DNA of 64,000 nucleotides. Source: a virus (lineage: Duplodnaviria > Caudoviricetes). Of this stretch, positions 10,905 through 39,191 are shown in pieces. Position numbers and translations under genes: made by a program. The stretch covers positions 128,001-192,000 of IMG/VR virus record IMGVR_UViG_3300014204_000111, one strand, 5' to 3'. A model generated the notes under the pieces. That model ran no database searches. It was not told the DNA's origin and saw only the letters and a list, made by a program, of their open reading frames with translations. The stretch's first letter is position 1. Every line of letters starts with the position of its first letter.

Positions 10905-11729
10905 TTGCAAGATATAGTTTTAACTGACCAAGAGATAGAATCTTTGATGTCTAGTAATTACGTCAAAGTTAATAATTATGAACAGTATTTTGAAAATGAA
11001 TATATTAAAACAGACAATTATTTATTAAAATATAGTAATGATGAACTTAAAATATGTCCTATCCAATTTAAAACTAAATTTCCAATCAAAATTCCCCAAA
11101 ATAACTATCCTTATTTAGCTGTAGTTAACGCTTGTATTGACCCAGCTATCCCGCTTGTTTGTATAGAAGGAAAAGCGGGAACAGGAAAAAGTTCTTCCGC
11201 CGTTGCTTCACTAATGTATTTATGGGATAAAACTCCTGAATTAAGAGCTATTTTAGTAAAAGAAAATATCTTATCTACAGCTAATGGATTAGGATATTTA
11301 AAAGGTACACTTGATGAAAAAAAGAAACCTATTTTTGAATATATTAATTCTGTATTAGAATTTACTAATAATACTAAATCTAAGTCATCTATTAAAGTAG
11401 ATGATTTTGAGCTACAAACTTTAGCATTTTTATTAGGTACAACTTTTTATAAATCTTATATTATTGTAGATGAGGCCCAAAACTTAACTCCTCAAAATAT
11501 AGATTTATTAGTTACAAGAGTTGGAAAAGGAAGCAAAATGATATTATTAGGAGATAGTGACCAAAATTATAATAAAACATATAAGGGAGATAATGGTTTA
11601 GTCTATCTTCGTAAAGTTATGCAAGGAAGTAAGCTTTTTGCTTCTATCGAATTAACCGATTGTTCTTTACGTTCTGCTTTGGTGGAAGAATTTTTAACAA
11701 GAAAAAATAATTACCAACAATATGGGTAA
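10905..11729 (+). CDS. phoH: PhoH-family ATPase
   Basis: GKAGTGKS, LGYLKG, IIVDEAQN, TRVGKGSK, GDSDQ, RSALV. Confidence 0.9.
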   Translation: MQDIVLTDQEIESLMSSNYVKVNNYEQYFENEYIKTDNYLLKYSNDELKICPIQFKTKFPIKIPQNNYPYLAVVNACIDPAIPLVCIEGKAGTGKSSSAVASLMYLWDKTPELRAILVKENILSTANGLGYLKGTLDEKKKPIFEYINSVLEFTNNTKSKSSIKVDDFELQTLAFLLGTTFYKSYIIVDEAQNLTPQNIDLLVTRVGKGSKMILLGDSDQNYNKTYKGDNGLVYLRKVMQGSKLFASIELTDCSLRSALVEEFLTRKNNYQQYG

Positions 11730-16776: not shown

Positions 16777-17170
16777 TCTTATTCTGCTCTATAGGAAACC
16801 ATTTGGTGACGAGTATGTTTCTGCGGATAGTCTTTTTGATGGTAAGTATAATATATATGAATTATTAGATATGTTTCCTGAAGCTTATCTTTTATTGGTT
16901 AATGATACAACAGAATATAACTTAGAACAAGTAATTAATAGAACTCGTTTAAATCAATATTTTAAAGTTGACGATAAAAATGAAATGCCTTGTGTTAATT
17001 GTAAGGCTGGAAATCCTGTAGATAGAGAATATTGCTATAAATGTGGTTATAAAAATAAATATTATAGTGTTACTAAATTTCTTAGTGACTCTTTTAGTAA
17101 AGCAATGTCTACAAAATATTATGTACTTTATGAATTTTGGGAAGACCAAAGACACAGAAGTATAATCTAA
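16769..17170 (+). CDS. zinc-ribbon protein
   Basis: CVNC...CYKCG. Confidence 0.65.
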   Translation: MNNLILLYRKPFGDEYVSADSLFDGKYNIYELLDMFPEAYLLLVNDTTEYNLEQVINRTRLNQYFKVDDKNEMPCVNCKAGNPVDREYCYKCGYKNKYYSVTKFLSDSFSKAMSTKYYVLYEFWEDQRHRSII

Positions 17171-17181
17171 GAGGATTGATA

Positions 17182-20100
17182 ATGACTCCAGAAGAATTAA
17201 TTGCTGCTAGACAATCTGTTCTTGACTCTTTACAAACATTTAGAAAAGAGAATAATCTTAGTCCGGTTTTAGACCCTAGGGGAGAGACTCCAGAAACTAG
17301 AAACACGCATAATATACAAAATATTTACCAACAAACACGTTATGGGCAAGAATATAGACATCCAGATAATCCATTTTTCCCTCCTGCTAATGAAGAAGAT
17401 TTTGGTCATGGAGGATTTGCTCCAGCATTAACACCAGAAGAAGAAGAGAAAATAAATATAAATGATACTTCTGAAACAGATTTACCTAATAATAATAGTA
17501 ATTTTTTATTTCCACAAGAATCTGTCAATCCTGAGATAAATAAAAAATGGAACGAGTACCAAAATAATATAAAAACAAGTAATATAGCTAAAATACATCG
17601 TTTAAACAAAAAACCATATGAACATCCTGATGAAACAATGTATCTAGGTGGAGAAAACTGGTCTCATGGAGGAATAAAAGATTTTATTCAACCATTAGAT
17701 GAAGGTATTTCCTCTTTATTTGATAAAATTACTTTTTCTAGAGATAATATAGAGAGAAACAAAGCAATAACAGAAAAATCTCCTCGATTTAATTCTAAAA
17801 AATTAATGCCAGAAACAGCTAATGCCTGGAGTAATTTTATAACTTCTCTTAAAATTCCTCATGGCGGAGATAATAATATTAATTTAAAAGAATTATTGAA
17901 AGAGACGGGATATGTTCACGGTCAATTAAATCCTGAAACAAAAGAAATATCTTGGAATGCAATACCTGAAAAAAAAGCGTGGACTCATAGTGATTTAACT
18001 AGAGAAATACCAGGAATAGTTTTAGGTGGTATACAAGGTATTGTACATCCTAAAACAAAAAAAGAACATTTAAATATTTCTTGGGTTGGTACTCCAGAAC
18101 ATTTAAGAAATCAAGGATTTGCTACTACATTAGAAACAGAAGCACATAAATTAGCAAAACAATCTGGATATGGAGGGCTATATTCTGATGAACAATTACA
18201 TCCTGAATTTACAAAACCAATTCATCAAAAACTAGGTAAACCATATACTCATTGGGGTAAAGAAGAATATTTCGGACATGGCGGAATGAAAGAAGATTAC
18301 ACTCATGTAGGTAATTATATAGGAGAAGTATTCAAACAACATCCAGATAGGAATATAGCTATTACACGCTTAAAAGATGAAGGTGTTATTAGTGGTAATC
18401 CTTCTTCTGGAAAAGATAAACAAGTATACTCTTTAAATACATTTTTACATCCTGAAACAGGCGATATTCAGCGTTTTAGAGGTGGAGTGCTTAAAGTAGT
18501 TCATCCTAATCAAGGTAGATATGCACAAGATGCTATGTTGGAAGAAGTTACTTCTTCTCAATTATATCCTAATGTAACTGTACCTGTTCATGCATATGAT
18601 AATCATAATTATAATTGGGCAATTGCGGATAAAGTAAAGCCTTTAATTTCTGGGTCAAGAGAGTATATTTTTGGGCAAGACCCAGATATGACAAGTTCAC
18701 AAAAATATGATGCAAATCGAAGAATAGAAGAAGGACAATCAAAATTAGAGGATTATTTAAATCGTTCTAGTCCAGAATTTTTACAAGAAATTTCTAAGAT
18801 AGGTGTTAAACCAGCAGAAACAGAGTGGGCTGCTAATTGGGGTATAACACCTGTTAGAAATGAACAAGGAAATGTTGTTAGAGACCCAAGAACCAAAAGA
18901 ACTCTTAAGAAGTTAGTCTTATTAGATTCTTCAAGAGCTGGACTAAATAAAGCTGTTCCTACTCCAGAAGAGATGATGAACACTATGTATGGACAAACTT
19001 TTGAAAAACTCCAAGAATTACAATTAATTGGTAAAAAACCTCTTGGAGAAGGAATGAGAAGAGTAGTATATCCTACTGCTAATCCAGGTATTGTTGCTAA
19101 AAGAGCAAAAATAAGTCCATCTGGTAAGGCTCATGTAGGAATGAACAATAATGGTGATGAAAGAAATAAATATTTAACTTTAAAAAATCAAGGATTAGAT
19201 AAACATGTAGCCGAAGTTTATGGATTAGTTCCTATTAAAGATAATAACATTCTTTTGCAAGAAAGAGTGCGTCCAATAGATATGGGAATTAAAGATGACG
19301 ATAAAATTTATGAAAAATATAACAAGCTTATTTCACCAGATATGCAAGATTTTTTTACTAATAGATTAGGAATTAATGATATTCATCCAGGAAATATGGG
19401 GATTAAAAAAGATAAAGAGACTGGAGAAAAATATCCTGTAGCTATTGATATTCCTAATAATATGGGTCATGGTGGAGAGAAATATGTTGGTCGAGATTAT
19501 GATAAAGTTTTAGAATGGCTAGAGAATACTCCGCGTGATGAAGTTACGGCACAATTAAAACCATTAGGTAGTGGTAGACATAGAGCAGTATATGCTTTTC
19601 CTAATAAATTTGCTAAAGAGCAATTTGGAGATATTTATCCAGAAATTGTATATAAAGACCCTGTGGCGTATCAAGGAACTCCTGCTAACGAAAGAGAAAT
19701 GAGAAATTGGCAACAATTAAAAGAACAGGGGAAGGCAGAATTAGCCGCTCCTGTTGTTGCACAAGCAAGATTAAAAGGTGGATATAGAGTAGGTATTTTA
19801 CAGAGAAGAATTAATCCTTTTCATGGTGATAAAGCCTTTGGTCAAAATACTCCGTGGGAAAGAGATGAAGAATTCACAAACGCAGGACTTAAAGATAGAG
19901 TTGGTTTTAATTTTGGTTTAACTAGAGTAATGCCAGATGGTTCATTAGGACAAAAAAGAACAGTGCAACATGATATAGCAGGTGCTCTTAACAAGGCAAT
20001 TAATGATTATGATGAAGTTGGAAATTTAATTAGAAATTCTAAACTAGAACAATTCAGTTCAATGCTCAAATTTATGGGACGAGAAGGTAAAGATAGAAGG

Positions 20101-23064
20101 GTTGGAACTTTAGACCATAAAATTGCTCAAAATTTATTAGGCAAAACTTATGCAGATTTTCTTAAAGTTAAACCAATAGTATTTAAAATTCCTATGGCAA
20201 ATAGTTGGGAACCTAACGCGAACAACATGGAGTATGAAAATTTTATGAATAAATATAAGGGACAAGAACTTGTTGTTCCAACTTTAGCTTCTTTTCATAC
20301 AAATGATAATAAGGTTATCAATATTCAACCTAAAGTAAATCCATTTAGGTCAGAAAAACAAATGATGCGGACTTTAACTTCTGATAGAGAGAATGAACTT
20401 TATGGAAAAACTGGATTACATGATTTAGGTTATCATAATTTAGCTAATACTAAAATAACAGATAATGGAGTATTAACCGACCATAATTCTGTAAGACCGT
20501 TTGATTATGTACATGGTGGAGATAAAAAGATTAGTTATGATACCAAGGGGCGTTTTATAAACTCTGGTGTTATGAGAGAAGTTCATCAATCTGCATTAAA
20601 TCCAAATCATGTAGTAAAAATTCCTTATGGAAGAGATGGAGAAGAGAATAATAGGGCAGAACGTGCTAGATATTTGAAATTAAAAAAATTAGGATTAACA
20701 GGAACTGGAGATTTAGAAAAAGATTTGACTATTGATATTCATGGTTTTGACCCTGAATCAGGTAGAAGTGTTGCTGAAAAAGCATATCCTATTCCGGGTT
20801 ATTTAGCAGAGTCAATATCTAGAGATTTAAGAACTGGGGGTAAAGCTGAGAATTTCCCTGAAACACTAAAAGATAGGGTACTACAATTACGGGAAATAAC
20901 GCGCAATCCTATGAATAGAAATATAAGTGATTTACATGGAAGTAATGCAATGTTTAATTCTCCATATAAAGGAGACTTCAATAATGAAGATGAATTTGTT
21001 AATTTTGCATCAAAACATTTAGTAACTGTAGATTTCAATGCAGGACATGATGGAGATAAAAATTCTTTATCTGAATTATTAAAAACTACTAAATATGTAT
21101 ATGGAGAGTTAAATCCTAAAACTAAGGCTATTAATTGGAATTCTATTGACCCAGTTGATGCTCTACCATTTAATCAGTTTACTAAGGAAAGTCCCCGTAT
21201 ATTATTGACCAATAGGTATGGTTATATACATCCTGAAACTAAGCAAGAGCATCTTACTATTTCTTGGGTTGGAGTTCCAGAAAAAATGAGAAAAAAGGGT
21301 TTTGCTACCGCATTAGAAACTGAAGCACATAAGTTAGCCAAACAGTCTGGATATGGAGGATTGTATTCTACACATCAAAATCATCCAGAGGCTACCAATT
21401 CTATTCATCAAAAATTAGGCAAAGTTATACAAGATAAAGAAGGTGCTGAATTTTTCAATAAAAGTAGAGAATATCATTGGCCTCTTGACCCTCTTGACCC
21501 TTCTTTGCCAACTAAACAGCCAATTACGGATATTAGTGCTTTACGTCCAGAATTTGCACAAGCAATTACAGAATTATTTAAACAAGCTAAACAACACGGA
21601 TATGATTTATATATTAGAGAAACATTTAGAACTAGACCTCGCCAAGATGAACTAAATAAGGAATGGCATGCTGGTCAAACTGGTTATGCACCTGATATTT
21701 ATGATGAACGTGGTAATTTAAATATTGATGATGCTAATTTTGCTCATGGACAAGGATTAGCTGCTGACATAGGAATTAAAGGATATGAAGAGAATGAAAC
21801 ACCTATTCACCATCAATTACATAAATTGCTTTTTAATATTAATCCTCAAATTATATCAGATAAGGTAATCCAGGGCGATGAAAATCATTATGAAGCATCA
21901 GACCAATATAGACAAAGTGTTGAAGTAGATTTAACTAAATCTCCATTTTATACTGAATATGTAAAGCGTTATGCTAATCCTACTCCGCAAGAATTGGATA
22001 AACCAGGAACTCAATTGCCAGAACAAAGTATGTTAAAAAGTATATTCGAAGCATTTGGTGTCGTTAAGGCTCTTTATTCTGGCCCAGACGATTCTTATGC
22101 ATATAGAGAAGGAGAAAATCCTCATCTAGATAATTCAAGAGCAACACTAGAAGCTATTAAAAATACTAAACTAGGTAAAAGAAGTAATTTTACAATTAAA
22201 AAACAATCAACATCTCCTCAAGTGTCGTTATCTCAATCTCCAGTTGTAACTCAACCAAGCCCTACTTTGTCTCAAGTAAATTTTACGTCACCTCAGAAAA
22301 TAGCTCCTCAATTATCACCTGATTTAGCTAAAGTTGCCACTGGATATAGTGATATATTAAGTAAATTAAGAGAACAACCAACTAGAAGTATGCCTCGACA
22401 AACAGATACATCAGGTGGATATGAATCTCCTATTCTTCCTAAACCTTCTCAGTTAGGTATGAGTGTACCTATGAGTCAATCTAAATTAAGAGATACTGGT
22501 CAAGGTTATACAGATAAACCTGGGGATAGAAGTCCAATTGTTCATCAATTAGGACAGAATCTTTTTGGAGAGACAGAATCTCAACCTAAAAATCTTAATT
22601 TATTCGGAGAATCATTTCCAGAGATACCTTCAACTCAAGAAACACAACCTAATGTTGGTTCTTTATTTGATGCTTCTTCACCATCTTTATTTGACTCTAA
22701 TACTATTCAAAATATGAGATATGGAGAAGCTGATATTCAATTAAAGAGAGAGAAAGAACAAGAAGCTATAAGACAAGCTCAACTTGAAGAACAAAAACAA
22801 CAAGAACTTCAAAGTAGACAAGCTCAAATACAATCAATTTTTAATAAAAATCCTCGTGATGTTGGAGGATTTGCCTATGATAAACTTAAAGAAGAGAATA
22901 AATTAGGTGGATTTGGAGGTATTTTAGCTCAAATAGCTGATAAAATTATTGGCCCTGCAACAGCTCCTCTTGGTGGCTTCAGCTTCGAAGAACAAAGAGC
23001 TAAAAATATGCTTGCTCAAGAAAAAAGAAATTTAGCAAATGAAATTAAAAAACGTCAAATATAG
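17182..23064 (+). CDS. multi-enzyme polyprotein: GNAT, 5 kinase-fold modules, GNAT, M15 peptidase, low-complexity tail
   Basis: GAGGA RBS before ATG 17182; GNAT motif A (LRNQGFAT, MRKKGFAT); kinase motifs (GEG..VVY, VAK, DIHPGN, ID); M15 motifs (R-R-RQ, HGQGLAAD, DENH). Confidence 0.75.
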   Translation: MTPEELIAARQSVLDSLQTFRKENNLSPVLDPRGETPETRNTHNIQNIYQQTRYGQEYRHPDNPFFPPANEEDFGHGGFAPALTPEEEEKININDTSETDLPNNNSNFLFPQESVNPEINKKWNEYQNNIKTSNIAKIHRLNKKPYEHPDETMYLGGENWSHGGIKDFIQPLDEGISSLFDKITFSRDNIERNKAITEKSPRFNSKKLMPETANAWSNFITSLKIPHGGDNNINLKELLKETGYVHGQLNPETKEISWNAIPEKKAWTHSDLTREIPGIVLGGIQGIVHPKTKKEHLNISWVGTPEHLRNQGFATTLETEAHKLAKQSGYGGLYSDEQLHPEFTKPIHQKLGKPYTHWGKEEYFGHGGMKEDYTHVGNYIGEVFKQHPDRNIAITRLKDEGVISGNPSSGKDKQVYSLNTFLHPETGDIQRFRGGVLKVVHPNQGRYAQDAMLEEVTSSQLYPNVTVPVHAYDNHNYNWAIADKVKPLISGSREYIFGQDPDMTSSQKYDANRRIEEGQSKLEDYLNRSSPEFLQEISKIGVKPAETEWAANWGITPVRNEQGNVVRDPRTKRTLKKLVLLDSSRAGLNKAVPTPEEMMNTMYGQTFEKLQELQLIGKKPLGEGMRRVVYPTANPGIVAKRAKISPSGKAHVGMNNNGDERNKYLTLKNQGLDKHVAEVYGLVPIKDNNILLQERVRPIDMGIKDDDKIYEKYNKLISPDMQDFFTNRLGINDIHPGNMGIKKDKETGEKYPVAIDIPNNMGHGGEKYVGRDYDKVLEWLENTPRDEVTAQLKPLGSGRHRAVYAFPNKFAKEQFGDIYPEIVYKDPVAYQGTPANEREMRNWQQLKEQGKAELAAPVVAQARLKGGYRVGILQRRINPFHGDKAFGQNTPWERDEEFTNAGLKDRVGFNFGLTRVMPDGSLGQKRTVQHDIAGALNKAINDYDEVGNLIRNSKLEQFSSMLKFMGREGKDRRVGTLDHKIAQNLLGKTYADFLKVKPIVFKIPMANSWEPNANNMEYENFMNKYKGQELVVPTLASFHTNDNKVINIQPKVNPFRSEKQMMRTLTSDRENELYGKTGLHDLGYHNLANTKITDNGVLTDHNSVRPFDYVHGGDKKISYDTKGRFINSGVMREVHQSALNPNHVVKIPYGRDGEENNRAERARYLKLKKLGLTGTGDLEKDLTIDIHGFDPESGRSVAEKAYPIPGYLAESISRDLRTGGKAENFPETLKDRVLQLREITRNPMNRNISDLHGSNAMFNSPYKGDFNNEDEFVNFASKHLVTVDFNAGHDGDKNSLSELLKTTKYVYGELNPKTKAINWNSIDPVDALPFNQFTKESPRILLTNRYGYIHPETKQEHLTISWVGVPEKMRKKGFATALETEAHKLAKQSGYGGLYSTHQNHPEATNSIHQKLGKVIQDKEGAEFFNKSREYHWPLDPLDPSLPTKQPITDISALRPEFAQAITELFKQAKQHGYDLYIRETFRTRPRQDELNKEWHAGQTGYAPDIYDERGNLNIDDANFAHGQGLAADIGIKGYEENETPIHHQLHKLLFNINPQIISDKVIQGDENHYEASDQYRQSVEVDLTKSPFYTEYVKRYANPTPQELDKPGTQLPEQSMLKSIFEAFGVVKALYSGPDDSYAYREGENPHLDNSRATLEAIKNTKLGKRSNFTIKKQSTSPQVSLSQSPVVTQPSPTLSQVNFTSPQKIAPQLSPDLAKVATGYSDILSKLREQPTRSMPRQTDTSGGYESPILPKPSQLGMSVPMSQSKLRDTGQGYTDKPGDRSPIVHQLGQNLFGETESQPKNLNLFGESFPEIPSTQETQPNVGSLFDASSPSLFDSNTIQNMRYGEADIQLKREKEQEAIRQAQLEEQKQQELQSRQAQIQSIFNKNPRDVGGFAYDKLKEENKLGGFGGILAQIADKIIGPATAPLGGFSFEEQRAKNMLAQEKRNLANEIKKRQI
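17872..21423 (+). repeat. intragenic duplication of the GNAT module (about 17872-18240 and 21064-21423)
   Basis: shared strings such as LETEAHKLAKQSGYGGLYS, ISWVG-PE and IHQKLGK. Confidence 0.9.
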
Positions 23065-24529
23065 TATCAGAAACATGAAATGTAGATAGACAGAGAGACG
23101 ATACAATATCATCGAATCCTGTTCTTGGCTTATATTTAATATTACCACTATCTGTTGTTTCCGCTCTATAACCCTTGAGTTCTTTTTTTATCTCTGGAAT
23201 ATCCCATAATGCTAAAGCTTCTGAAGCTAATTTGACTCTTAATTTTTCAATCATTTCATTTTTATTTTGATTAGTAAATTTGAGACCTTTAATTACTATT
23301 GATACACCATATTTATCTTTTAATCTTTTAGCTACTTCTCTTGGAACAGATGAACCTTCTCCAGTTGCGTCTATAATTACTTTTAATTTTCTTTTACCAT
23401 TATGTTGTCTAAATATAAAATCAGTAATTCTCTCTATATTCTCATCGTCTCCAACTTGAGTATATCTTTGGAATCCTACCATTTTATAATCCCCAGTTAA
23501 TGCTGTACAAACTGTATAGTCATGTAATCTAGCATAGTCAATACCAATGGTAATTTCTTCGTTCGGAGCTGGGGTATAAAATTGACTTTTTGTTTCTCCG
23601 TATTCTATCCCCTTTTTGAACTCTACAGGAAACCAAATATCCTCATTAAACGAAAATACATCTCCCGCGATAGTATCAAACTTAGCTTCGTACTCTCTTG
23701 CAAAAATAGCTCTCGAATATGGAGTTCCTGTAGATTCGGCCTTTCTTTTCTCTTCATAATACTCAGAGATATCAGCAAAAGGATTCTCTAGAATATGCAT
23801 TCTAAATCCTCTCGCTCTTAATCTTGCTATCTTACTTGCTGCTTGATATGCTGTAATATCTCCAGACTTAAACATCTCTCTAATCTTATGTTCATCTTCT
23901 TCTGCTAATTGAAATCTCTCTGCAAAAAAGTTTATCTCTCTCGGAGAACTAATAGCAAACAATCTTCCCATATTATTTTCACGGGCAAGAGATGGTTTGA
24001 TTAAGTTAAAAGCGTCATCTTTAAGAATTGCAGCTTCGTCTATAACTACTAAATCAGCACTTTTACCAATTAAAGAGTCAGGATTATCTCCAGATAAACA
24101 AGTTAAAGTACTATGTTCAGAACCCATAGATGTACTTAAATGCATATCTTGTCTTGTATTTGAGCCAGAAACTTTGATGCTACGCAAGAAGTCACTTTTA
24201 ACAAAAGCAGTCCAAACTGTATCAAAAACAATTTTGGCTAACTGGTAAAAAGGAGCTACTAAAAATATCTTTCTGTTAGGTAAACAAAGTTCTTCTAATA
24301 CTCTTATAGCAGCAGTTTGAGATTTACCACTTCCACGAGAAGCAGTAATATACATTTCTTTTGCAGGACACATAAGAAGTTTTGTTTGTTTGTCAAATGG
24401 CACGTATTCTTCGCCAAATGACTCCCACAACTTCATCCTGTCCTCTCCTAGCCCTAAAGCTTCATCTCTATCTGTTAGTGGTGTTTTGTTTAAAAGTGCT
24501 CTAGGATTACTCGTCAGTGTGTTCTTCAA
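23045..24529 (-). CDS. terL: terminase large subunit
   Basis: Walker A ASRGSGKS, Walker B VVIDEAA, FAREYEAKF, nuclease IGIDYAR..D, DATGEG, DDIVSS. Confidence 0.93.
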   Translation of the reverse strand: MKNTLTSNPRALLNKTPLTDRDEALGLGEDRMKLWESFGEEYVPFDKQTKLLMCPAKEMYITASRGSGKSQTAAIRVLEELCLPNRKIFLVAPFYQLAKIVFDTVWTAFVKSDFLRSIKVSGSNTRQDMHLSTSMGSEHSTLTCLSGDNPDSLIGKSADLVVIDEAAILKDDAFNLIKPSLARENNMGRLFAISSPREINFFAERFQLAEEDEHKIREMFKSGDITAYQAASKIARLRARGFRMHILENPFADISEYYEEKRKAESTGTPYSRAIFAREYEAKFDTIAGDVFSFNEDIWFPVEFKKGIEYGETKSQFYTPAPNEEITIGIDYARLHDYTVCTALTGDYKMVGFQRYTQVGDDENIERITDFIFRQHNGKRKLKVIIDATGEGSSVPREVAKRLKDKYGVSIVIKGLKFTNQNKNEMIEKLRVKLASEALALWDIPEIKKELKGYRAETTDSGNIKYKPRTGFDDIVSSLCLSTFHVSDTIFDVF

Positions 24530-25344: not shown

Positions 25345-28197
25345 ATGAGAAATTTTAACATCTTAGACATTTTTAAACTAGATTATATATCTGACCGTAA
25401 ATTACGTCAAATGGATAAGGTCATTAGGACTCCCGTTAAAACACGTTCATTAACAACAGAGTTTAGACCTCACGACCGAGACCGTGGGCAGGAAATATCT
25501 GGAGAATATTCATTTCAAATACCTTTTAGACAACAAAAACAGTTATATCAAAGAAATCCGTGGGTTAAGCGTTGTATTGACCATATTTCTTCTGCTGCTG
25601 CTGGATTAAATTGGCATATTATACCAAAAGAAAAATACAGAGAAGAAATGGAAACTGACCAACATATGCAAACAGCTAAGGTATTGGCAGAAGAATTGTT
25701 TAATCGCCCAAATACTTTTAAACAATCATTTAGCGACTTAATTAAAATGATTGTTAGAGATGTTAAAATTATGGATGCTGCTGCGATTGAGAAAGGGAGA
25801 GATTCATTTGGAAGATTAATTACTCTTAAGGTAATTGATGCTTCTACACTTAAAATTGATATTGATGAACGAGGACAAATAATAAAATACGTACAAGAAT
25901 TTAGAGGTAATCAACTTCATGGTATGTATACTATTCCTAATGAACTAGCAAATGCGAGAGACCCACATGGAAGTAGAGGAATTGATTTTGACCCTACTGA
26001 AGTAATATATCTTAGGCTTAATCCTCGCTCAGAAGGGCCATATGGTTCTTCTCCTATAGCATCTTTAGTAGAAGCAATTTATGCTGATTTAGCAACTGAT
26101 ATTAATCTTTATCATTTTCTTAATACTGGTGGTGTTAATACTGGTTATATGAGTGTTGGCCCAAATATTGACAATGACCAAATTGAAAGAATCAAGATTA
26201 AGTTTCGTCGCTCTTTATCTCCTGGTATGAGATATGAATTTCCTATTATATCATCAGAAGATGAAGTTAAATGGGAATCAATGCAAGTTACTAATGTTGA
26301 AGCACAAATGGCTGAATTACAAGGAGAACTAAGAAATAAAATTTTAGCAGTTCTTTCTATTCCACCTAATGAATTAGGTTTATCTGGAAATACTAGAGGT
26401 CAAGTTTATAGTCAGCAAGATGTGTTCTGGGGTAATGCTATTATTCCTATGATGAAATCTATTGCTGAAAAATTTACAAATGAAATTTTAGCGGAATTTG
26501 ACGATAGATTAATGTTTGAATTTTTACCTCCTTCTGAGTATCAATATGAAGCAATTATGGCTAGAATTACAACTCTTGAACAAGAAGGACTAATTGAAGA
26601 TGATTTAAAGTATCAATGGTTAGGCTTAACTCCTCCAAAAGAACCCACTTATGTTCAAAAGAAAAAAGAACTAGAACTTAGAAAATTAGCTGTTGATGTC
26701 TATATGGTAGAAATGCAAGCACTTGCTCAGTATAAGAATAAAAAATACATCTTAGATGAACCTCGTTTGCAATATCAACAATTACAAGCTGAAACTCAGC
26801 AAATGATGGGTGGAGGACAAGCCTCTCAAGGTGAATTAGACATTCAAAATGCTCAAATAGATGTTCAGAAAAAACAAATAGAGCTTGAAAAACTGAGAAT
26901 TATGTCTGACCAGAAGATGTTTCCAGATGAGATGGAACTAAAGAAACTTCAAATTCAAGCACAAATTCTTGAAGCTCAAAGCATGATGGCTCAGAATGGA
27001 AGTAGTTCAAATACTCCTCAAGCTCCATTAACAATGGGCGAAATTGTACATGGTATACAAAGTGGAGAAATAAATACACAAACTCTAGCAGTTATGATTG
27101 AAAAACATTTGGTTGACCCTGAACAGTTAAAACTCATTAATGTTGCAGATAGAACTGTCTCAGGTATAATAAAGGATGCAGAAGAAGTTGCTACTCAAAA
27201 ACAAGCTATTCAATTTAAGAAAGAAAAAATAAATATGGATAGACAAAAAGAGCAAATGAAATATCAGCAAGCTGGCGCTCAACATCAAAACAAAATGGCA
27301 GATGCTCAATTTGACCAACAAAAGATGGGAATTCAAAATCAAGGTGAGTTACAAAATGTTATTGCTCAGCAAGAATTAGCTAGAAATCAGTTAGGTATGA
27401 GACAACAACAAATGGAACAACGTGGACGCTTGCAACAGCAAAATATGCAAGCTCAACAAGCTCTTGGACAACAAAAGACCCAAGTTCAACAACAACAGTT
27501 GTCTCTTCAGCAACAGCAAATGCAACAAATGGCCCAAAATCCTCAAATGGCTCAACAAGGAATGCAACCTCAGCAACAAAATTCTGCTAATTCTCAACAA
27601 CAATTACAGGAATTAAGACAATTAACTATGAATAAATCTATTTCAGATAGATTAAATTTCTTTAAAACCTTACCTAATATTTTAGGAAATGGACAAATTA
27701 CTGATTCTAAAATAAGTGAACCTCATAAATCTAGAATAAGTCCAGATATTACTCATTTTGAGAATGATGTACATGATTTTGATTTAAGTAAACATGTAGA
27801 GAATAAAATAGAATCATTAGAATCTAGAAATCCTGCTGTGTCTATGTCTACTCCTTCTTTAATAAAAAATCAAGCTATGGGTGTTGATGTCAAAGATAAC
27901 AATCCTGTAGATATGGCTATTAAACAAATTTCCGAAGTTGGAGAAATGGATGCTATTCATCCTAATACAGGGATAAAGAGCAATCAGAATGTTTTAGGTC
28001 AACATACAACTGGAGATGGAGCGCATAGTGCAACAACTATTTCTAGTCCATCTCAAGAAGGAATTGCTGCAATTAGACCTCTTAATATAAAGAAGCCTTT
28101 ATCATTCCAAGCAACTGACCCTCAACCAGGACATGCCAAGCTTGATATAGATTCAGCGCAAAAGAAGCATAATACTAAACCAAAAAGTGAAATATAA
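25345..28197 (+). CDS. portal protein (HK97-like) with a long Q-rich C-terminal extension
   Basis: WVKRCIDHIS, LFNRPN, EVIYLR..P...YGSSPI, ILAVLSIPP..LG, AIIPM; position before protease and capsid genes. Confidence 0.88.
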   Translation: MRNFNILDIFKLDYISDRKLRQMDKVIRTPVKTRSLTTEFRPHDRDRGQEISGEYSFQIPFRQQKQLYQRNPWVKRCIDHISSAAAGLNWHIIPKEKYREEMETDQHMQTAKVLAEELFNRPNTFKQSFSDLIKMIVRDVKIMDAAAIEKGRDSFGRLITLKVIDASTLKIDIDERGQIIKYVQEFRGNQLHGMYTIPNELANARDPHGSRGIDFDPTEVIYLRLNPRSEGPYGSSPIASLVEAIYADLATDINLYHFLNTGGVNTGYMSVGPNIDNDQIERIKIKFRRSLSPGMRYEFPIISSEDEVKWESMQVTNVEAQMAELQGELRNKILAVLSIPPNELGLSGNTRGQVYSQQDVFWGNAIIPMMKSIAEKFTNEILAEFDDRLMFEFLPPSEYQYEAIMARITTLEQEGLIEDDLKYQWLGLTPPKEPTYVQKKKELELRKLAVDVYMVEMQALAQYKNKKYILDEPRLQYQQLQAETQQMMGGGQASQGELDIQNAQIDVQKKQIELEKLRIMSDQKMFPDEMELKKLQIQAQILEAQSMMAQNGSSSNTPQAPLTMGEIVHGIQSGEINTQTLAVMIEKHLVDPEQLKLINVADRTVSGIIKDAEEVATQKQAIQFKKEKINMDRQKEQMKYQQAGAQHQNKMADAQFDQQKMGIQNQGELQNVIAQQELARNQLGMRQQQMEQRGRLQQQNMQAQQALGQQKTQVQQQQLSLQQQQMQQMAQNPQMAQQGMQPQQQNSANSQQQLQELRQLTMNKSISDRLNFFKTLPNILGNGQITDSKISEPHKSRISPDITHFENDVHDFDLSKHVENKIESLESRNPAVSMSTPSLIKNQAMGVDVKDNNPVDMAIKQISEVGEMDAIHPNTGIKSNQNVLGQHTTGDGAHSATTISSPSQEGIAAIRPLNIKKPLSFQATDPQPGHAKLDIDSAQKKHNTKPKSEI

Positions 28198-32922: not shown

Positions 32923-32928
32923 AAGTGT

Positions 32929-32945
32929 GGGTAAAATACTGTATG
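32929..32945 (+). promoter_or_regulatory. leaderless promoter GGG-TAAAAT-N5-ATG
   Basis: recurrent motif; moves the protease start to 32943. Confidence 0.7.
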
Positions 32946-34922
32946 GCTAATAAAACCTTTATAACTGGTGAAAATGTTAAAAGTCTTGTAAAGATGGAAT
33001 ATGACGGAGATGTTATCTTTGAAGGTATATTCGCATCTAATGATAGAGATATTCAAGGCGATATTATTGATAAAACAATGCTTAAGCAAATGAATAATAA
33101 TCTTAACACTGGTGCGCCTGTTTTCTTAAATCACTTTTATCATAGACCGGCTGTTGGTAAAGTTTTAAAATCAGAATATATGGAAGACCCAAATACAGGA
33201 AGAGCTTGGATTTGGGGGCGTGGTGTTGTTGATTCTGCTGATGCTGATTTTAAAAGACAAGTAGCAGATGGTAGATATAAATATATCTCGGTTGGTGGAC
33301 ATTTAGATGATTATGAAATGGAAAAGTCTGCCGATGGGAAATCTACTCGTCGTTGTAAAAGTGGAAAAGCTCTTGAGATATCTTTAACCGCAGTTCCTAT
33401 TAATATATCTGCTGGTATGACATTAGCAAAAGGTCAAATTAACGATGAAATTACAGACCAAATTATAGAAAATAATAACTTAATGAAAGCAATCTTCTCA
33501 ATGGACGAGGATGAGCAAGGTAAATTAACTAAACTAAATTATCACGAAGTAGAATTTATCCCCATATCGGAGCAAAGTATGTTGCAAAAAGGTGAAGTTG
33601 GAGAATTCAAGAAGTTAGACGAAAAACCTAGCAAATCAAGTATTGAATTCGGACATGGTACAAAAGTTGGAGAAGAAGACTTAGAAAAGTATTATAATCC
33701 AAAGGTTTCTGGCTTTATAACCAGCAAAGACGTAGACCCTCTTAATGTTTCTGACGAACATTCTCAAGAATTCTTAAGCAAACATAAGACAAGTGTTATT
33801 GAATCAAATGAAAAACATGATGATTTTGGTTTTGTTGATAAAAACAGCGAATCTTTCTTAAATAAAACTTCGATTTCTGACCCCGCTGCTCCTAACAAGT
33901 ATGACCCAGGTAACTCTGTAGATAAAAATTCTAACTCTTGGATTCTTTCTCAGGCTAAAACATTTGTTTCTGGTTTAGATTCTATGCAAAAAGCAGTATT
34001 AGTTGATTTAATTTTCCACGATTTTAATACTGATAAATTATATGCAACATCTGGAGAAAGCCAGCCAAACGTCATTCACCGTTTATTACATCAAAAGAAT
34101 TCTTATGCTAAAGCTGGTGGATTTTCTAATATTATTGGTCAAGAACTTACAGCATTATTAAAGTCTCTTGATTGGCGTAATTCTGATAACAATATGTATG
34201 ATAGATTAGTATTAGACCATATTCTTGGCCCAAATCATATTGAAGAGGTAAAAGATTATTTAACTAAGTCTATGTATGGTTTTGCTGGAGACAAAGACCC
34301 TAATGAACCAGATGGCGATGAAATGGGACAAGACCCTTCAATGGGTGGTTCTCCTATGGGACAAGACCCAAGTATGGGTGGAGCACCTATGGGACAAGAC
34401 CCTTCAATGGGTGGAGCACCTGCAATGCCCGCTCCTGGTGCAGAAGGTACTGACCCAAGTATGGGCGGTGGCGAAGACCCAACAATAGGCGCAGTTTCTC
34501 AAATTGTTGAAAAATATGCTCAGCAAGCAGGAATTGACCCCAATTCTATTCAACAACTATTACAAGGTGGAGATGTAACTGGCGCAGCTAAGGCCGTTAT
34601 TCAAGCATTACAGCAATCTAATCCTGACTTAGCTAATCAAATGTTAGATGAACTAAACCAAACCCTACAGGGTGGTGGTTCTGAACAAGCAACACCTGGA
34701 GGTGGTGAAGCACCTGGCGCAGCTCCCCAATCAATGATGATGGGTAAATCAATTAATCCAGAAGAAGCTGTTGCTGCATATAGAGAAGCGAGAAAAGAAC
34801 AGTTTACAAAGTCAAGAGTTTTCTCTGAACAACCTGCTCAATCTCGATATAATAGTAAACCAGCCAGCGGCGCTGACTTGGCAATGGCCTCTTGGATAGG
34901 TCAGTATAATATCGAAAGATAA
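32943..34922 (+). CDS. HK97-type prohead protease fused to a scaffold-like region
   Basis: FEGIFAS..RDIQGDII, FLNH (His), AVGKV, YISVGG (Ser), LEISLTAVP-N; long acidic low-complexity C-terminal part. Confidence 0.88.
   Translation: MANKTFITGENVKSLVKMEYDGDVIFEGIFASNDRDIQGDIIDKTMLKQMNNNLNTGAPVFLNHFYHRPAVGKVLKSEYMEDPNTGRAWIWGRGVVDSADADFKRQVADGRYKYISVGGHLDDYEMEKSADGKSTRRCKSGKALEISLTAVPINISAGMTLAKGQINDEITDQIIENNNLMKAIFSMDEDEQGKLTKLNYHEVEFIPISEQSMLQKGEVGEFKKLDEKPSKSSIEFGHGTKVGEEDLEKYYNPKVSGFITSKDVDPLNVSDEHSQEFLSKHKTSVIESNEKHDDFGFVDKNSESFLNKTSISDPAAPNKYDPGNSVDKNSNSWILSQAKTFVSGLDSMQKAVLVDLIFHDFNTDKLYATSGESQPNVIHRLLHQKNSYAKAGGFSNIIGQELTALLKSLDWRNSDNNMYDRLVLDHILGPNHIEEVKDYLTKSMYGFAGDKDPNEPDGDEMGQDPSMGGSPMGQDPSMGGAPMGQDPSMGGAPAMPAPGAEGTDPSMGGGEDPTIGAVSQIVEKYAQQAGIDPNSIQQLLQGGDVTGAAKAVIQALQQSNPDLANQMLDELNQTLQGGGSEQATPGGGEAPGAAPQSMMMGKSINPEEAVAAYREARKEQFTKSRVFSEQPAQSRYNSKPASGADLAMASWIGQYNIER
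34323..34421 (+). repeat. three tandem 33-bp repeats encoding MGQDPSMGG(S/A)P
   Basis: units start at 34323, 34356, 34389; looser copies follow. Confidence 0.9.
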
Positions 34923-34933
34923 GGAACTAAATA

Positions 34934-36214
34934 ATGAATCGTAGACAACCATTTGTGAAGAGCAATCAGAATTTCCAAAAAGCAGGAGATTTTCCTACTA
35001 CATGGGGAGATTCAGGGAGTGTTCCCGCTGATTACCAAACAGTGTATAATCCTGGGCAAGGCTTTAACGTCTCTGCTCAAGTAGGAAGTCTTACAGCTCC
35101 TATTATTGGTAGCCCTGGTGTTATCAACTCAATCGGTGGTAGAGACTTCTTATCAATTGATGTAACGCAAGAATATTTGCCTTATATCAACCAAGCGTCT
35201 TATTTGCGTAAGCACCACAGAGTCGTTCCTATGGACGGCCCAAGCAAGTATATTCCTAAGATTGCTGGCCCAGCAAAAGTGTATGCAACTGGTGAAGGTC
35301 AGGTTATGAGTCAAACCGTAATCCCAACCACAACTGTTGCGTTGATTGCAAAAGCAATGGCAGTTTCTTTCGCAATTCCTCGTGAAATCGCGGATGACTC
35401 TATCATCAATTTGCTTCCTGCAATTAGAGAACACTTAGTTGACCGTTTCGTTCTTGCAGAAGAAGAAGCCTTCTTATTAGGTGATGAAAACACTTTCGCT
35501 GGTAGTGGTAGCGTTCGTTCTATGTTTAACGGATTGAGTGTCGGTGGTGAGTATAACTCCCTTGGCTCTTCAGATGTTATGGCAAATAACGGTGCTGAAT
35601 TAATTAACGCCGCTGGAAACCCATTCTCAACTGAGCATGTTAACGAAGCTCTTGAGAAGTTGGACTTGCTAGGACAAAATCCTGACCATATTCTAGGTAT
35701 TATTTCTCGTAAGCATGCAAGAACCCTACGTGGTGACTCTACGCTTTTACGTCAATTAACTAACTTTGGCCCAAGCCCAACCTTTAGAACTGGTCGTATA
35801 GGCCAAATCTTTGGTGTTAACTTGGTTCAAACTAACTTGTTGAATCCTAATGCGATGGTTCCAAGTGATGATGGTCAATGGTGGGGCTTCTTGGGCTTTG
35901 GTTCTGAAACTCCCGTTGAAATGACAACTCCTGGTGGAAATGACCCTGACCTTTTAAGTGATTATGGTACTGGTAACAGAATCTATTCATATTATGGTTC
36001 AGAAGCTCTTGCTAAGGCGCATCAGACAACTCTTACTGAAGCTTTGTTTGTCCATAAGGATAGCGCAGTTATCGGTGATAGACAGAAATTGGAAATCGAA
36101 ATGTCTGCTCACACTCTATTAGCGGCTCGTTCGCTCTTGCTTGTGGCGCATGAGAGAATTGCATTTGCTTTACAATTACGTAGAGGTATTTGCAAGGTCA
36201 TCCAGTTGGGTTGA
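34934..36214 (+). CDS. major capsid protein (HK97 fold)
   Basis: GEG, IPREIADDSII, EEEAFLLGD, FNGL, GQIFGVNLV, ERIAF; follows the protease; terminator downstream. Confidence 0.92.
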   Translation: MNRRQPFVKSNQNFQKAGDFPTTWGDSGSVPADYQTVYNPGQGFNVSAQVGSLTAPIIGSPGVINSIGGRDFLSIDVTQEYLPYINQASYLRKHHRVVPMDGPSKYIPKIAGPAKVYATGEGQVMSQTVIPTTTVALIAKAMAVSFAIPREIADDSIINLLPAIREHLVDRFVLAEEEAFLLGDENTFAGSGSVRSMFNGLSVGGEYNSLGSSDVMANNGAELINAAGNPFSTEHVNEALEKLDLLGQNPDHILGIISRKHARTLRGDSTLLRQLTNFGPSPTFRTGRIGQIFGVNLVQTNLLNPNAMVPSDDGQWWGFLGFGSETPVEMTTPGGNDPDLLSDYGTGNRIYSYYGSEALAKAHQTTLTEALFVHKDSAVIGDRQKLEIEMSAHTLLAARSLLLVAHERIAFALQLRRGICKVIQLG

Positions 36215-36216
36215 TG

Positions 36217-36233
36217 CATGTATCATCTTACCC
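36217..36233 (-). promoter_or_regulatory. antisense-oriented GGG-TAAGAT-N5-ATG motif pointing into the capsid gene
   Basis: reverse complement of CATGTATCATCTTACCC. Confidence 0.4.
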
Positions 36234-36250
36234 ATTCCATCAGATTATTC

Positions 36251-36278
36251 AAGAGGCTGTTAAAAGCCTCTTTTTTTT
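36251..36278 (+). terminator. intrinsic terminator after the capsid gene
   Basis: AAGAGGCT-GTTAAA-AGCCTCTT followed by T run. Confidence 0.88.
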
Positions 36279-36319
36279 GGGTATATAGAGTATACGAAAA
36301 ATTATACAGGAGTATAACG

Positions 36320-37324
36320 ATGCAGTGGATTCAACAAGAAGACGATTTGCTTAAAGCAAAATTTGCGACAACAGGTACATATGATTTACTACCCTTATTT
36401 CCTGGCAGAACTTGGAAATCTTTGGTACATCGTGCAACAAAATTGGGATTATCTAAAACTAAAGAATGTAGAACTAATTTAACTAGAAAAGCCTCATCAT
36501 TGTCTCAAAATGATATTCTTTTAATGAAAGATAAGTATTCTAAAATTGAACAATATAAATGGCAATATTTAGCAGGAATGATAGATTCAGATGGTTGTAT
36601 TCGTTTATACAAAAATACAGCAAATTATTCTCCAGTTATATATGTGACAAATATATCAGAATCACTTATAGATTGGTTAGTAAATAATTTTGGTGGTTCT
36701 AAAAATAATATCAGACATAAAACGGGAGATTCAATTAATGGTATTACAGTGAAGAGCAGAAGACAGGCTTTTAGTTGGAAACTAACAGGTTTAGAAAATG
36801 TGGTAGAATTACTTAAATATCTAAAAAGTGAATTAATTATAAAGAGACAGCAAGCAGAAATTATTCTTGATGCTCACTCTCAAGGCTGGTATTCTATTAA
36901 TTTAGAACCTGTTTATACAAAATTAATTCAATCTAAAAAAGAATATGACATTAATAATTCTTGCTCTTCAGTTATTACAGATGCTTATCTAGCGGGAATG
37001 ATTGATGGAGATGGATGTATTATATTAAGATACAATAATTATGACTTTATTAATGCTATGTTAGATATATCCAATGAAAGTATAATTTTAAATAAAAAAT
37101 TATTAGATTTAGGATGGAATCAATTTATGAATAGAGGATTAATACATAATACAATTTATAAACAAAAAGACTGTCTTTCTTTGCTCTTAAACATTAGCCC
37201 TTATCTCATCATCAAAAAAGAGCAAGCGGAATTAGTTATTGAATTCTTACAAAACAAAAAAACCCTTGATAAAGAAGGTCAAGAGGATTATAAAAATCGT
37301 CTATCTCTTCTAAAACAAGGGTAA
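36320..37324 (+). CDS. free-standing double-motif LAGLIDADG homing endonuclease with N-terminal Myb/HTH-like region
   Basis: YLAGMIDSDG and YLAGMIDGDG; AGGAG RBS before ATG 36320. Confidence 0.9.
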   Translation: MQWIQQEDDLLKAKFATTGTYDLLPLFPGRTWKSLVHRATKLGLSKTKECRTNLTRKASSLSQNDILLMKDKYSKIEQYKWQYLAGMIDSDGCIRLYKNTANYSPVIYVTNISESLIDWLVNNFGGSKNNIRHKTGDSINGITVKSRRQAFSWKLTGLENVVELLKYLKSELIIKRQQAEIILDAHSQGWYSINLEPVYTKLIQSKKEYDINNSCSSVITDAYLAGMIDGDGCIILRYNNYDFINAMLDISNESIILNKKLLDLGWNQFMNRGLIHNTIYKQKDCLSLLLNISPYLIIKKEQAELVIEFLQNKKTLDKEGQEDYKNRLSLLKQG

Positions 37325-37871: not shown

Positions 37872-38091
37872 TATCTACCTTCTTTATAAAATCATCAAGA
37901 ATTATTTGAAGTACTTCTATATGAGTTGAAGGAAAAATATCACAAGGAAAAACATGAGAACTAATCCTTCCTTTATATTTTATATGATATAAAACATCTT
38001 TTACTCCAGTTTTTATTGACACATTGACTCCATTTGACATACAAAGTCTATAAATAGCAATTTTTCCCCATATTTTATTTATAAATTTCAC
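37864..38091 (-). CDS. hypothetical protein
   Basis: overlapping minus-strand cassette. Confidence 0.55.
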   Translation of the reverse strand: MKFINKIWGKIAIYRLCMSNGVNVSIKTGVKDVLYHIKYKGRISSHVFPCDIFPSTHIEVLQIILDDFIKKVDNV

Positions 38092-39191
38092 TTAATTCTA
38101 TTAACCTCAATAAATTCTGCTTTTTTCTGAAATTCTTTGATTGTTTTTGCTCCAACATACGTCATTGAACTCTTTAGTCCTCCAAGAAGTTTTTTAACAA
38201 CATCGAGAGCAGAACCAGAATAAGGAACATATTTAGTTTCACCTTCTGCAACAATTCCTTCCTTCATTCCTCCATACCATTCTTGTTGGAAGTCTTCCGA
38301 AGATTGTCCCCAATATTGTCTATATAAATCTTGTGGATATTGTCTTTTTTCAAACATTCTTTTATATTCGGGTCTTATTGTTGGATTAGATTCTTCTAAG
38401 TCAATCATTTTTTGAATATCAATCATATGGTTAACTTTATCAATACCTAACTCTGAAGCCATAACTCTTTGAGTGAACCATCTTCCTCCTGCTTCTTCTG
38501 TTCCTGCAAGTAAAGAACCAATCATAACTATATTTGCTCCTGCTGCAATAGCTTTAGCGATATCTCCAGAGGTTTTAATTCCACCGTCAGCGATAACAGG
38601 AACTTTAAATTGTTTGGCTACCTTAGAAACCCAATGAATAGCAGTGATTTGAGGAACACCACAACCTGTTACCATTCTAGTAGTACAAGAATATCCTGGG
38701 CCAATACCAACCTTAAGAGCAGAAGCTCCTTCATTGCAAAAATCTCTTGCTGCTTCACCTGTTGCTATATTACTAACAATAATTTTGCCAGTATGATTAT
38801 AACTTCTAATAAACTTAAGAGCATTTAAAACCATCTTAGAATGAGCGTGAGCAATATCGATACACAATTCAGCTCCTATATCATTAGTAATCTTACAAAC
38901 TCTATCTTTCCATTCACTTGAAAGACAATCTCTCATTCCTATAGTAACAAACTCTCCAGGTTTTACATCTTCTAAATCAACAAATCTATGATGAATAAAA
39001 GGCCCACCATTATTAATAAATATATCTCTCATTGATAAAGTAGCAATACAATCCATATTTGCTGGAATAATAGGAATTTGAGTTATCATATCTTGAGCGA
39101 TATAAGAACTTACATCTGGTTCAGTTCTACTTTCAACATTTGAAAACTGAGGAATAATCAAAACATCATCAAAATCTAGTCCCTTGGTCAT
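38088..39191 (-). CDS. IMP dehydrogenase/GMP reductase family protein without CBS domains
   Basis: [63 protein letters not shown]. Confidence 0.92.

Follow-up and report, generated by a model that had tools for sequence, protein, structure and literature searches.

In the 64,000-nucleotide window analysed here (positions 128,001 to 192,000 of the IMG/VR record IMGVR_UViG_3300014204_000111, a Caudoviricetes virus), one gene encodes a 1960-residue multidomain protein in which residues 385–1306 form five tandem modules, M1 to M5, with the motifs of a protein-kinase-like (PKL) fold and an end just past the metal-binding Asp. From the sequence, we put the probability at roughly 0.6 that these are five truncated kinase-like paralogues within a phage polyvalent protein, which would be packaged into the virion and of which M2–M5 would phosphorylate host targets after entry. 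Polyvalent proteins, which are large and multidomain and occur in phages and plasmids, are predicted to be injected together with the DNA, and they include kinases devoid of a C-lobe (Iyer et al. 2017, PMC5512222). The gene and its kinase modules are located as follows.

17182 to 23064, plus strand: gene of the polyvalent protein, 1960 amino acids (aa); the database protein begins at the ATG at 17182
18289 to 18951, plus strand: kinase module M1 (aa 385–605); N-lobe intact, a long insert before the catalytic loop, D597 and then AGLNKA
18952 to 19476, plus strand: kinase module M2 (aa 606–780); GEGMRRVVY, K655, DIHPGN, D771 and then GHGG
19477 to 19995, plus strand: kinase module M3 (aa 781–953); GSGRHRAVY, K840, DRVGFN, D946 and then AGALNKA
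19996 to 20520, plus strand: kinase module M4 (aa 954–1128); K1017, DLGYHN, D1123 and then VHGG
20521 to 21054, plus strand: kinase module M5 (aa 1129–1306); a short leader, K1161, DLHGSN, D1299 and then GHDG

Each module is predicted to comprise a short leader, an N-lobe (beta1–3, helix C and beta4–5), one or two helices, the catalytic loop, which has the form D-x4-N in M2–M5, and a beta7–8 hairpin. The Gly loop starts at residues 423, 637, 811, 982 and 1142 in M1 to M5, respectively, the beta-3 Lys is found at residues 453, 655, 840, 1017 and 1161, and a helix-C Glu is present in every module. The D-x4-N loops occupy residues 748–753 in M2, 920–925 in M3, 1096–1101 in M4 and 1265–1270 in M5, and the terminal Asp, equivalent to that of the DFG motif, lies at residues 597, 771, 946, 1123 and 1299. 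All motifs listed in the original prediction were thus recovered in frame at these positions, and M2–M5 show the PKL motif order with kinase-like spacing and all five catalytic residues. The exception is M1, which has no correctly spaced Asp: its catalytic position reads Thr562-Glu563, with the Asn at 567. M1 had been described as carrying Glu in place of the catalytic Asp; the loss of the canonical Asp holds, but with the loop aligned through N-[FWM]-G, Thr562 falls on the Asp position and Glu563 is one residue off (an E-to-N spacing of 4, not 5). M1 may be a pseudokinase, a reading that fits its sequence. For M5, one MAFFT alignment offered an alternative catalytic loop starting GDFNNEDEF, which was rejected since no D-x4-N spacing fits it, while DLHGSN does fit.

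The modules are short at their C-terminal side. Past the terminal Asp, the sequence continues as SSRAGLNKA in M1, IPNNMGHGG in M2, IAGALNKA in M3, YVHGG in M4 and FNAGHDG in M5, so that a linker of the GHGG type or the AG(A)LNKA type begins 1–8 residues beyond each Asp, as had been proposed. From each terminal Asp to the following Gly loop there are only 40, 40, 38 and 21 residues. A canonical activation segment together with helices F–I takes about 100 residues; once the motif assignment is accepted, gaps of 21–40 residues leave no room for an activation segment or a distal C-lobe. The two array ends settle where a repeat unit begins and stops. M1 has a leader of its own, with the D-Y-x-x-V-G type motif common to the modules, despite the GNAT module upstream, and at the other end M5 passes from GHDG directly into a sequence that is also seen after PHGG at the start of the first GNAT module. 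The repeat unit is therefore a leader plus a core that ends at the Asp. Gap spacing, the phase set by the array ends, and stand-alone homologues that end 2–12 residues past the same Asp (see below) together support the proposed absence of the activation segment and distal C-lobe.

By sequence comparison the five modules are paralogues, and their repetition is not a matter of chance. Blastp between modules gave E-values of 4e-14 for M3–M4, 2e-5 for M2–M3, 4e-4 for M2–M5 and 5e-4 for M1–M5, and the M1 N-lobe was matched by a profile of M2–M5 at 8e-6; nothing else in the 221-kb genome was matched by this profile. Identity between modules is only 20–28%. Since the catalytic residues have survived in M2–M5 at this level of identity, catalysis appears to be under selection.

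The link from the modules to accepted kinases is indirect and, by sequence, goes through a phage protein family, phrog_4301, listed in PHROGs as of unknown function. Its hidden Markov model (HMM) matched M2 at 3.8e-8, M3 weakly at 2.3e-3 and M5 nominally at 0.04, while M1 and M4 on their own gave no match to it. When the phrog_4301 profile was searched in 401 Bacteroidota and 401 Bacillota-type genomes, it found small stand-alone open reading frames (ORFs) at about 4e-21, a canonical Hanks kinase (HRDLKPQH, DFG and an APE-type motif) at 5e-4, and UbiB/ABC1 kinases (HADPHPGN) at about 1e-4; the Hanks and UbiB matches ranged from 1e-4 to 7e-4 per genome. Because the same profile detects both Hanks and UbiB kinases, we regard phrog_4301, on these profile matches, as a protein-kinase-like family, some members of which end at the metal-binding Asp.

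The stand-alone homologues are phage proteins of about 120–150 aa that end 2–12 residues after the Asp. Two of them are given here.

L150:1495-1935, minus strand: stand-alone ORF of about 121 aa from its likely start, ending in LVCLDYV and the stop codon
L154:1516-1971, plus strand: stand-alone ORF of about 152 aa with IGSGSSRDVF, VIKVAK and VIIDYGFT, followed by 9 residues

Two residues follow the Asp in the L150 protein and in its relative P0006, and 12 in the L154 protein. The L150 protein has 158 metagenome relatives of 93–149 aa, of which the best 120 were listed. The stand-alone proteins (L150, L154 and P0005–P0124), of phage and prophage origin and about 120–150 aa, were without a Pfam match. 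One L150 relative, P0057, is encoded among small genes in a 145-kb phage-like contig; there, the stand-alone mini-kinase gene abuts and follows a gene for a 146-aa retropepsin-like aspartic protease (PF13650/PF13975; L159:5561-6366).

One of these relatives, P0006 (121 aa), could be modelled well. With 111 aligned sequences, AlphaFold2 gave a predicted local distance difference test score (pLDDT) of 93.3 and a predicted template modelling score (pTM) of 0.82, and the model has the element order beta1–3, a long helix C, beta4–5, one helix and beta7–8. In a Foldseek search against the PDB, the top 50 matches were all kinases (TTK, Rio2, RIOK, MEK1, SYK, NleH2 and OspG among them), with a probability of about 1 and a template modelling score on the query (TMq) of 0.45–0.60, but with E-values of only 1e-3 to 8e-3. 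Almost all rows belonged to the PKL fold, including Hanks kinases, APH, Rio1/2, Bud32, AceK, haspin and Ark1. The matched chain ranges stop at the DFG motif (PknB 14–158, BRAF 460–598 and TTK 528–666), so the predicted P0006 structure superposes on kinases only between beta-1 and DFG. Many phage proteins of 117–210 aa with the same fold, most of them unannotated, were also found in BFVD.

The modules of the window can be aligned with this folded family by profile–profile comparison. When the trimmed and realigned M2–M5 cores were compared with 59 stand-alone 120-aa proteins, hhalign gave a probability of 70.5%, an E-value of 3.9e-5 and a score of 34.3 over 106 columns, spanning the Gly loop to the terminal Asp, with the Lys, the helix-C N-x-x-E, the beta-5 Gln, the D-x4-N and the last Asp all kept in register. 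Controls stayed far lower, at 10.3 for the reversed alignment and at most 16.9 in 30 column shuffles. Without trimming, the paralogue alignment had reached an E-value of 0.0029 over 103 colinear columns against 59 members of the family. We therefore infer a kinase fold for the modules by homology transfer from their stand-alone relatives.

The closest known system by kind is the C-lobe-less kinase of polyvalent proteins, which is Pfam PF18762 (Kinase-PolyVal) of the PKinase clan (PMC9758233). For comparison, 13 PF18762 members were gathered from Bacteroidota genomes, and they end about 10 residues past FIDT. As in the modules, the whole C-terminal subdomain is lost with the active-site residues kept, and PF18762 likewise occurs in phage polyvalent proteins with GNAT and peptidase domains, and in stand-alone genes as well. 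Q141, invariant in the 13 members, has a counterpart in the beta-5 Gln of M2–M4 (LLQERV, ILQRRI and NIQPKV), but not in M1 or M5. In contrast, the members have an invariant G79 and E81 (G-x-E) where the modules read G-K-D, G-M-R, G-R-H or G-V-M (two of the five read G-K-D), and the array of the window has five tandem copies. Membership in PF18762 was rejected: hhalign against the 13 members gave a probability of 0.2–0.4%, the Gly-loop Glu is absent, and the PF18762 HMM found no match at an E-value of 10 in either the protein or the whole genome. The PF18762 members did not match phrog_4301 either. On these comparisons, the array is of the same kind as PF18762 but stands apart as a far more divergent branch, grouping with phrog_4301, of which M2 is a member by its HMM match. 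The modules share with phrog_4301 and the stand-alone proteins V-x-K-[IV]-P, the helix-C N-x-x-E, the beta-5 Q, D-x4-N-[FM]-G and a final hydrophobic-D. The stand-alone mini-kinases, like the modules, are phage-borne and end at the Asp; they differ in being single-domain products of small genes, with about 20% identity to the modules.

Two further systems are instructive. Among enzymes studied by experiment, OspG and NleH come closest. They are active without Hanks subdomains VIII–XI (PMC12756638), and they resemble the modules in having a minimal kinase fold; they too are delivered into a target cell. However, they serve enteric bacteria as type III secretion effectors and act in eukaryotic cells, they keep C-terminal helices past DFG (domains of about 160–170 aa), and OspG needs E2~ubiquitin. 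Foldseek matched the stand-alone relative to their structures (4bvu, 4o96 and 4lrk) as well, but no better than to kinases in general. By function, the modules may be likened to the T7 kinase Gp0.7, which is active early in infection, phosphorylates many host proteins and disarms defences (PMC13645617; PMC5512222). Unlike the modules, Gp0.7 is made after entry from an early gene, in a single copy and outside any virion-associated multidomain protein.

The remaining modules of the polyvalent protein are the following.

17863 to 18276, plus strand: GNAT-like module 1 (aa about 243–380), after PHGG; weak Pfam Acetyltransf_1 match at 0.031; paralogue of GNAT2
21055 to 21456, plus strand: GNAT module 2 (aa about 1307–1440); Pfam Acetyltransf_1 at 8e-6, above the cut-off in the whole-protein scan
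21514 to 21816, plus strand: VanY/M15-type peptidoglycan peptidase module (aa about 1460–1560); Pfam VanY at 2.8e-4 (below the cut-off) and phrog_2649 endolysin at 8e-5
21817 to 23061, plus strand: Ser/Pro/Gln-rich low-complexity tail and a charged, probably helical C-terminus, from the translation; no family match

With five kinase modules, two GNAT modules and an M15 peptidase in one polypeptide, and with terminase and portal genes adjacent, the architecture is that of a phage polyvalent protein. When excised, GNAT2 scored 18.7 bits, below the Acetyltransf_1 cut-off of 20.7 bits. The GNAT1 and GNAT2 starts (residues 243–265 and 1305–1327; about 17863 and 21049 of the window) are nearly identical and directly follow an H-G/D-G linker; a duplicated GNAT unit thus stands on either side of the kinase array.

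Packaging into the head is suggested by the place of the gene beside the terminase and portal genes, by the wall peptidase module and by the precedent of other polyvalent proteins. Cutting at the linkers has circumstantial sequence support: HGG occurs six times in the polyvalent protein against 0.12 expected (a 50-fold enrichment), it also borders non-kinase modules (residues 91, 177 and 242), and GHGG recurs in three other proteins of the phage (window 30454–31050, L160:501-1859 and L160:1934-2383, the latter two at genome positions 216001–217883), one of which belongs to the head module and has its site at residue 41. The 452-aa GHGG protein has two such sites and a sub-threshold Pfam match of caspase-like type (Raptor_N, E 0.007).

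The mechanism that we propose is as follows. The polyvalent protein would be loaded into the head of the phage and would enter the host with the DNA, and cuts at the GHGG-type and LNKA-type linkers might release separate mini-enzymes of about 170–220 aa. Using ATP, M2–M5 would phosphorylate different host targets in the service of takeover or counter-defence, in the manner of the T7 kinase, and M1 may act as a non-catalytic binder or a weak enzyme. With the activation segment and helices F–I absent, the substrate would have to be held otherwise, by the N-lobe, by variable inserts or by a partner protein.

Several results weigh against this interpretation. The Pfam scan produced no kinase model at threshold, its only signal being a Gly-loop match of M3 to YrbL; single modules gave no match in NCBIfam and PADLOC scans, and phmmer and profile searches of PDB sequences found none. 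The HMM of a single stand-alone family (A4) scored individual modules at only 0.01–0.05, which is weak and means that the relation between modules and family is distant and the link to the folded family indirect. An AlphaFold2 model of M2, built with its three paralogues (four sequences), had a pLDDT of 43 and matched only noise in the PDB. In a phmmer search of 1.84 billion representatives, M3 found only itself and two spurious repeat proteins, and word-indexed searches with the array (residues 384–1310) and with M2 returned only the protein itself. With no orthologue of the array in 5.8 billion proteins and no phmmer relative of M3, conservation is not measurable. Lastly, in the neighbourhood of the portal and capsid genes, neither PHROGs nor Pfam recognised a prohead protease. 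Other searches for relatives were similarly negative: tblastn against 50,697 phage records gave no match or only noise at E-values up to 10; pattern scans of viral and genome contigs with array, terminase and capsid found no relatives of the phage, and the paralogue alignment is itself too diverged for deriving patterns; and the M2–M5 profile had two weak matches in the 401 Bacteroidota genomes, neither of them a kinase.

Of the alternative explanations, the one that stands up best, as a possibility well short of an even chance, is that the array is neither cut nor injected and serves as one long multi-kinase protein in the cell or as an internal head protein, with linkers that are merely flexible remnants of domain duplication. 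Neither a protease gene nor evidence of cleavage was found, the N4 virion RNA polymerase moves unprocessed, as do several polyvalent proteins of plasmids, and the linker motif could have been copied along with the module during duplication. Against this, HGG borders non-kinase modules too, the genome has GHGG in three further proteins, one of them from the head module, and the linker has stayed unchanged while the modules diverged to 20–28% identity. The boldest form of our own proposal, a capsid-loaded 'salvo' in which all the mini-kinases are cut apart, active and injected, each acting on its own host target or defence system with M1 as a pseudokinase decoy or adaptor, is rather doubtful.

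We consider it unlikely that the modules, as active phosphotransferases, modify small molecules, nucleotides or RNA (such as signalling nucleotides, wall precursors or tRNA) in place of proteins. The D-[IL]-H-x-G-N loop of M2 and M5, which we take to resemble the APH/choline-kinase type, counts in favour of such substrates, and the parts by which Hanks kinases bind protein substrates are absent from the modules. However, the helical subdomain with which APH-type enzymes bind their substrates is absent too, OspG and NleH, which are minimal kinases, have protein substrates, and the kinase core of polyvalent proteins has been judged nearer to protein kinases (Iyer et al.).

Still less probable are catalytically dead modules that serve as nucleotide-binding or structural domains, for example as head filler or scaffolding. 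The loss of the canonical Asp in M1 and the extreme divergence would agree with inert domains; but M2–M5 have retained precisely the Lys, Glu, Asp, Asn and Asp needed for catalysis, and this selective survival fits poorly with inertness. Finally, a repeat with a different fold, in which kinase-like motifs had arisen by chance, would account for the missing Pfam kinase match and the lack of a confident model of any window module, but this is very improbable given the M2 match to phrog_4301, whose profile detects genuine kinases, and an hhalign signal that clears its controls, reversed and shuffled, by a wide margin and keeps all five catalytic positions aligned.

The textbook view of kinases assigns to helix F and the activation segment both the organisation of the active site and the holding of the substrate. 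The modules and their stand-alone relatives have neither, and yet the catalytic residues (in M2–M5 among the modules) are kept through extreme divergence. If active, the modules would set a lower size limit for the kinase fold, and the selection of substrates would become the question. The class of C-lobe-less kinases was predicted computationally in 2017; what is new here is the divergent branch and the five-copy array, which by sequence is distinguished by its five mutually divergent copies, its lack of a detectable orthologue and its membership in an unannotated phage family, phrog_4301. A protein that carries five copies and is probably virion-borne would extend the finding that a single phage kinase can disarm many defences, and its modules form a small set of candidate counter-defence enzymes that lend themselves to testing. 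A full five-kinase salvo, if true, would mark a new minimum for a working protein-kinase architecture and be the first viral multi-kinase delivery system. At the level of annotation, phrog_4301 and many small unannotated phage proteins gain a function-level description as truncated protein-kinase-like proteins.

The window derives from a complete virus record of 220,861 bp with direct terminal repeats. The frame of the polyvalent gene is open from 17137 to 23064 on the plus strand, which from the TTG at 17137 would give 1975 residues; the ATG at 17182 is most likely the start. Two packaging genes lie next to it.

23045 to 24529, minus strand: large terminase subunit (phrog_2, 7e-38), convergent with the polyvalent gene, whose end it overlaps
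25345 to 28197, plus strand: portal protein (phrog_2662 and phrog_12)

The portal protein has distant tblastn matches to the portals of Herelleviridae-type phages of Bacillota, and the capsid genes follow downstream of it. The structural region is flanked by a PhoH-like gene on one side (10905–11729; phrog_2765, 5e-42) and, on the other, by a dehydrogenase-like gene on the opposite, minus strand (38088–39191; phrog_9582, 2e-85). The major-capsid signal extends over two adjacent ORFs, 32925–34922 (phrog_617/4523) and 34934–36214 (phrog_10, profile positions 372–485), and is followed by an HNH endonuclease ORF at 36218–37324 (region 32925–37324); the capsid gene could have been interrupted or duplicated by a mobile element. 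The GC content is 0.42 at 34–36 kb and about 0.31 in the rest. Downstream of the head module there are two giant neighbouring ORFs of 4550 and 2230 aa (window 42353–62684).

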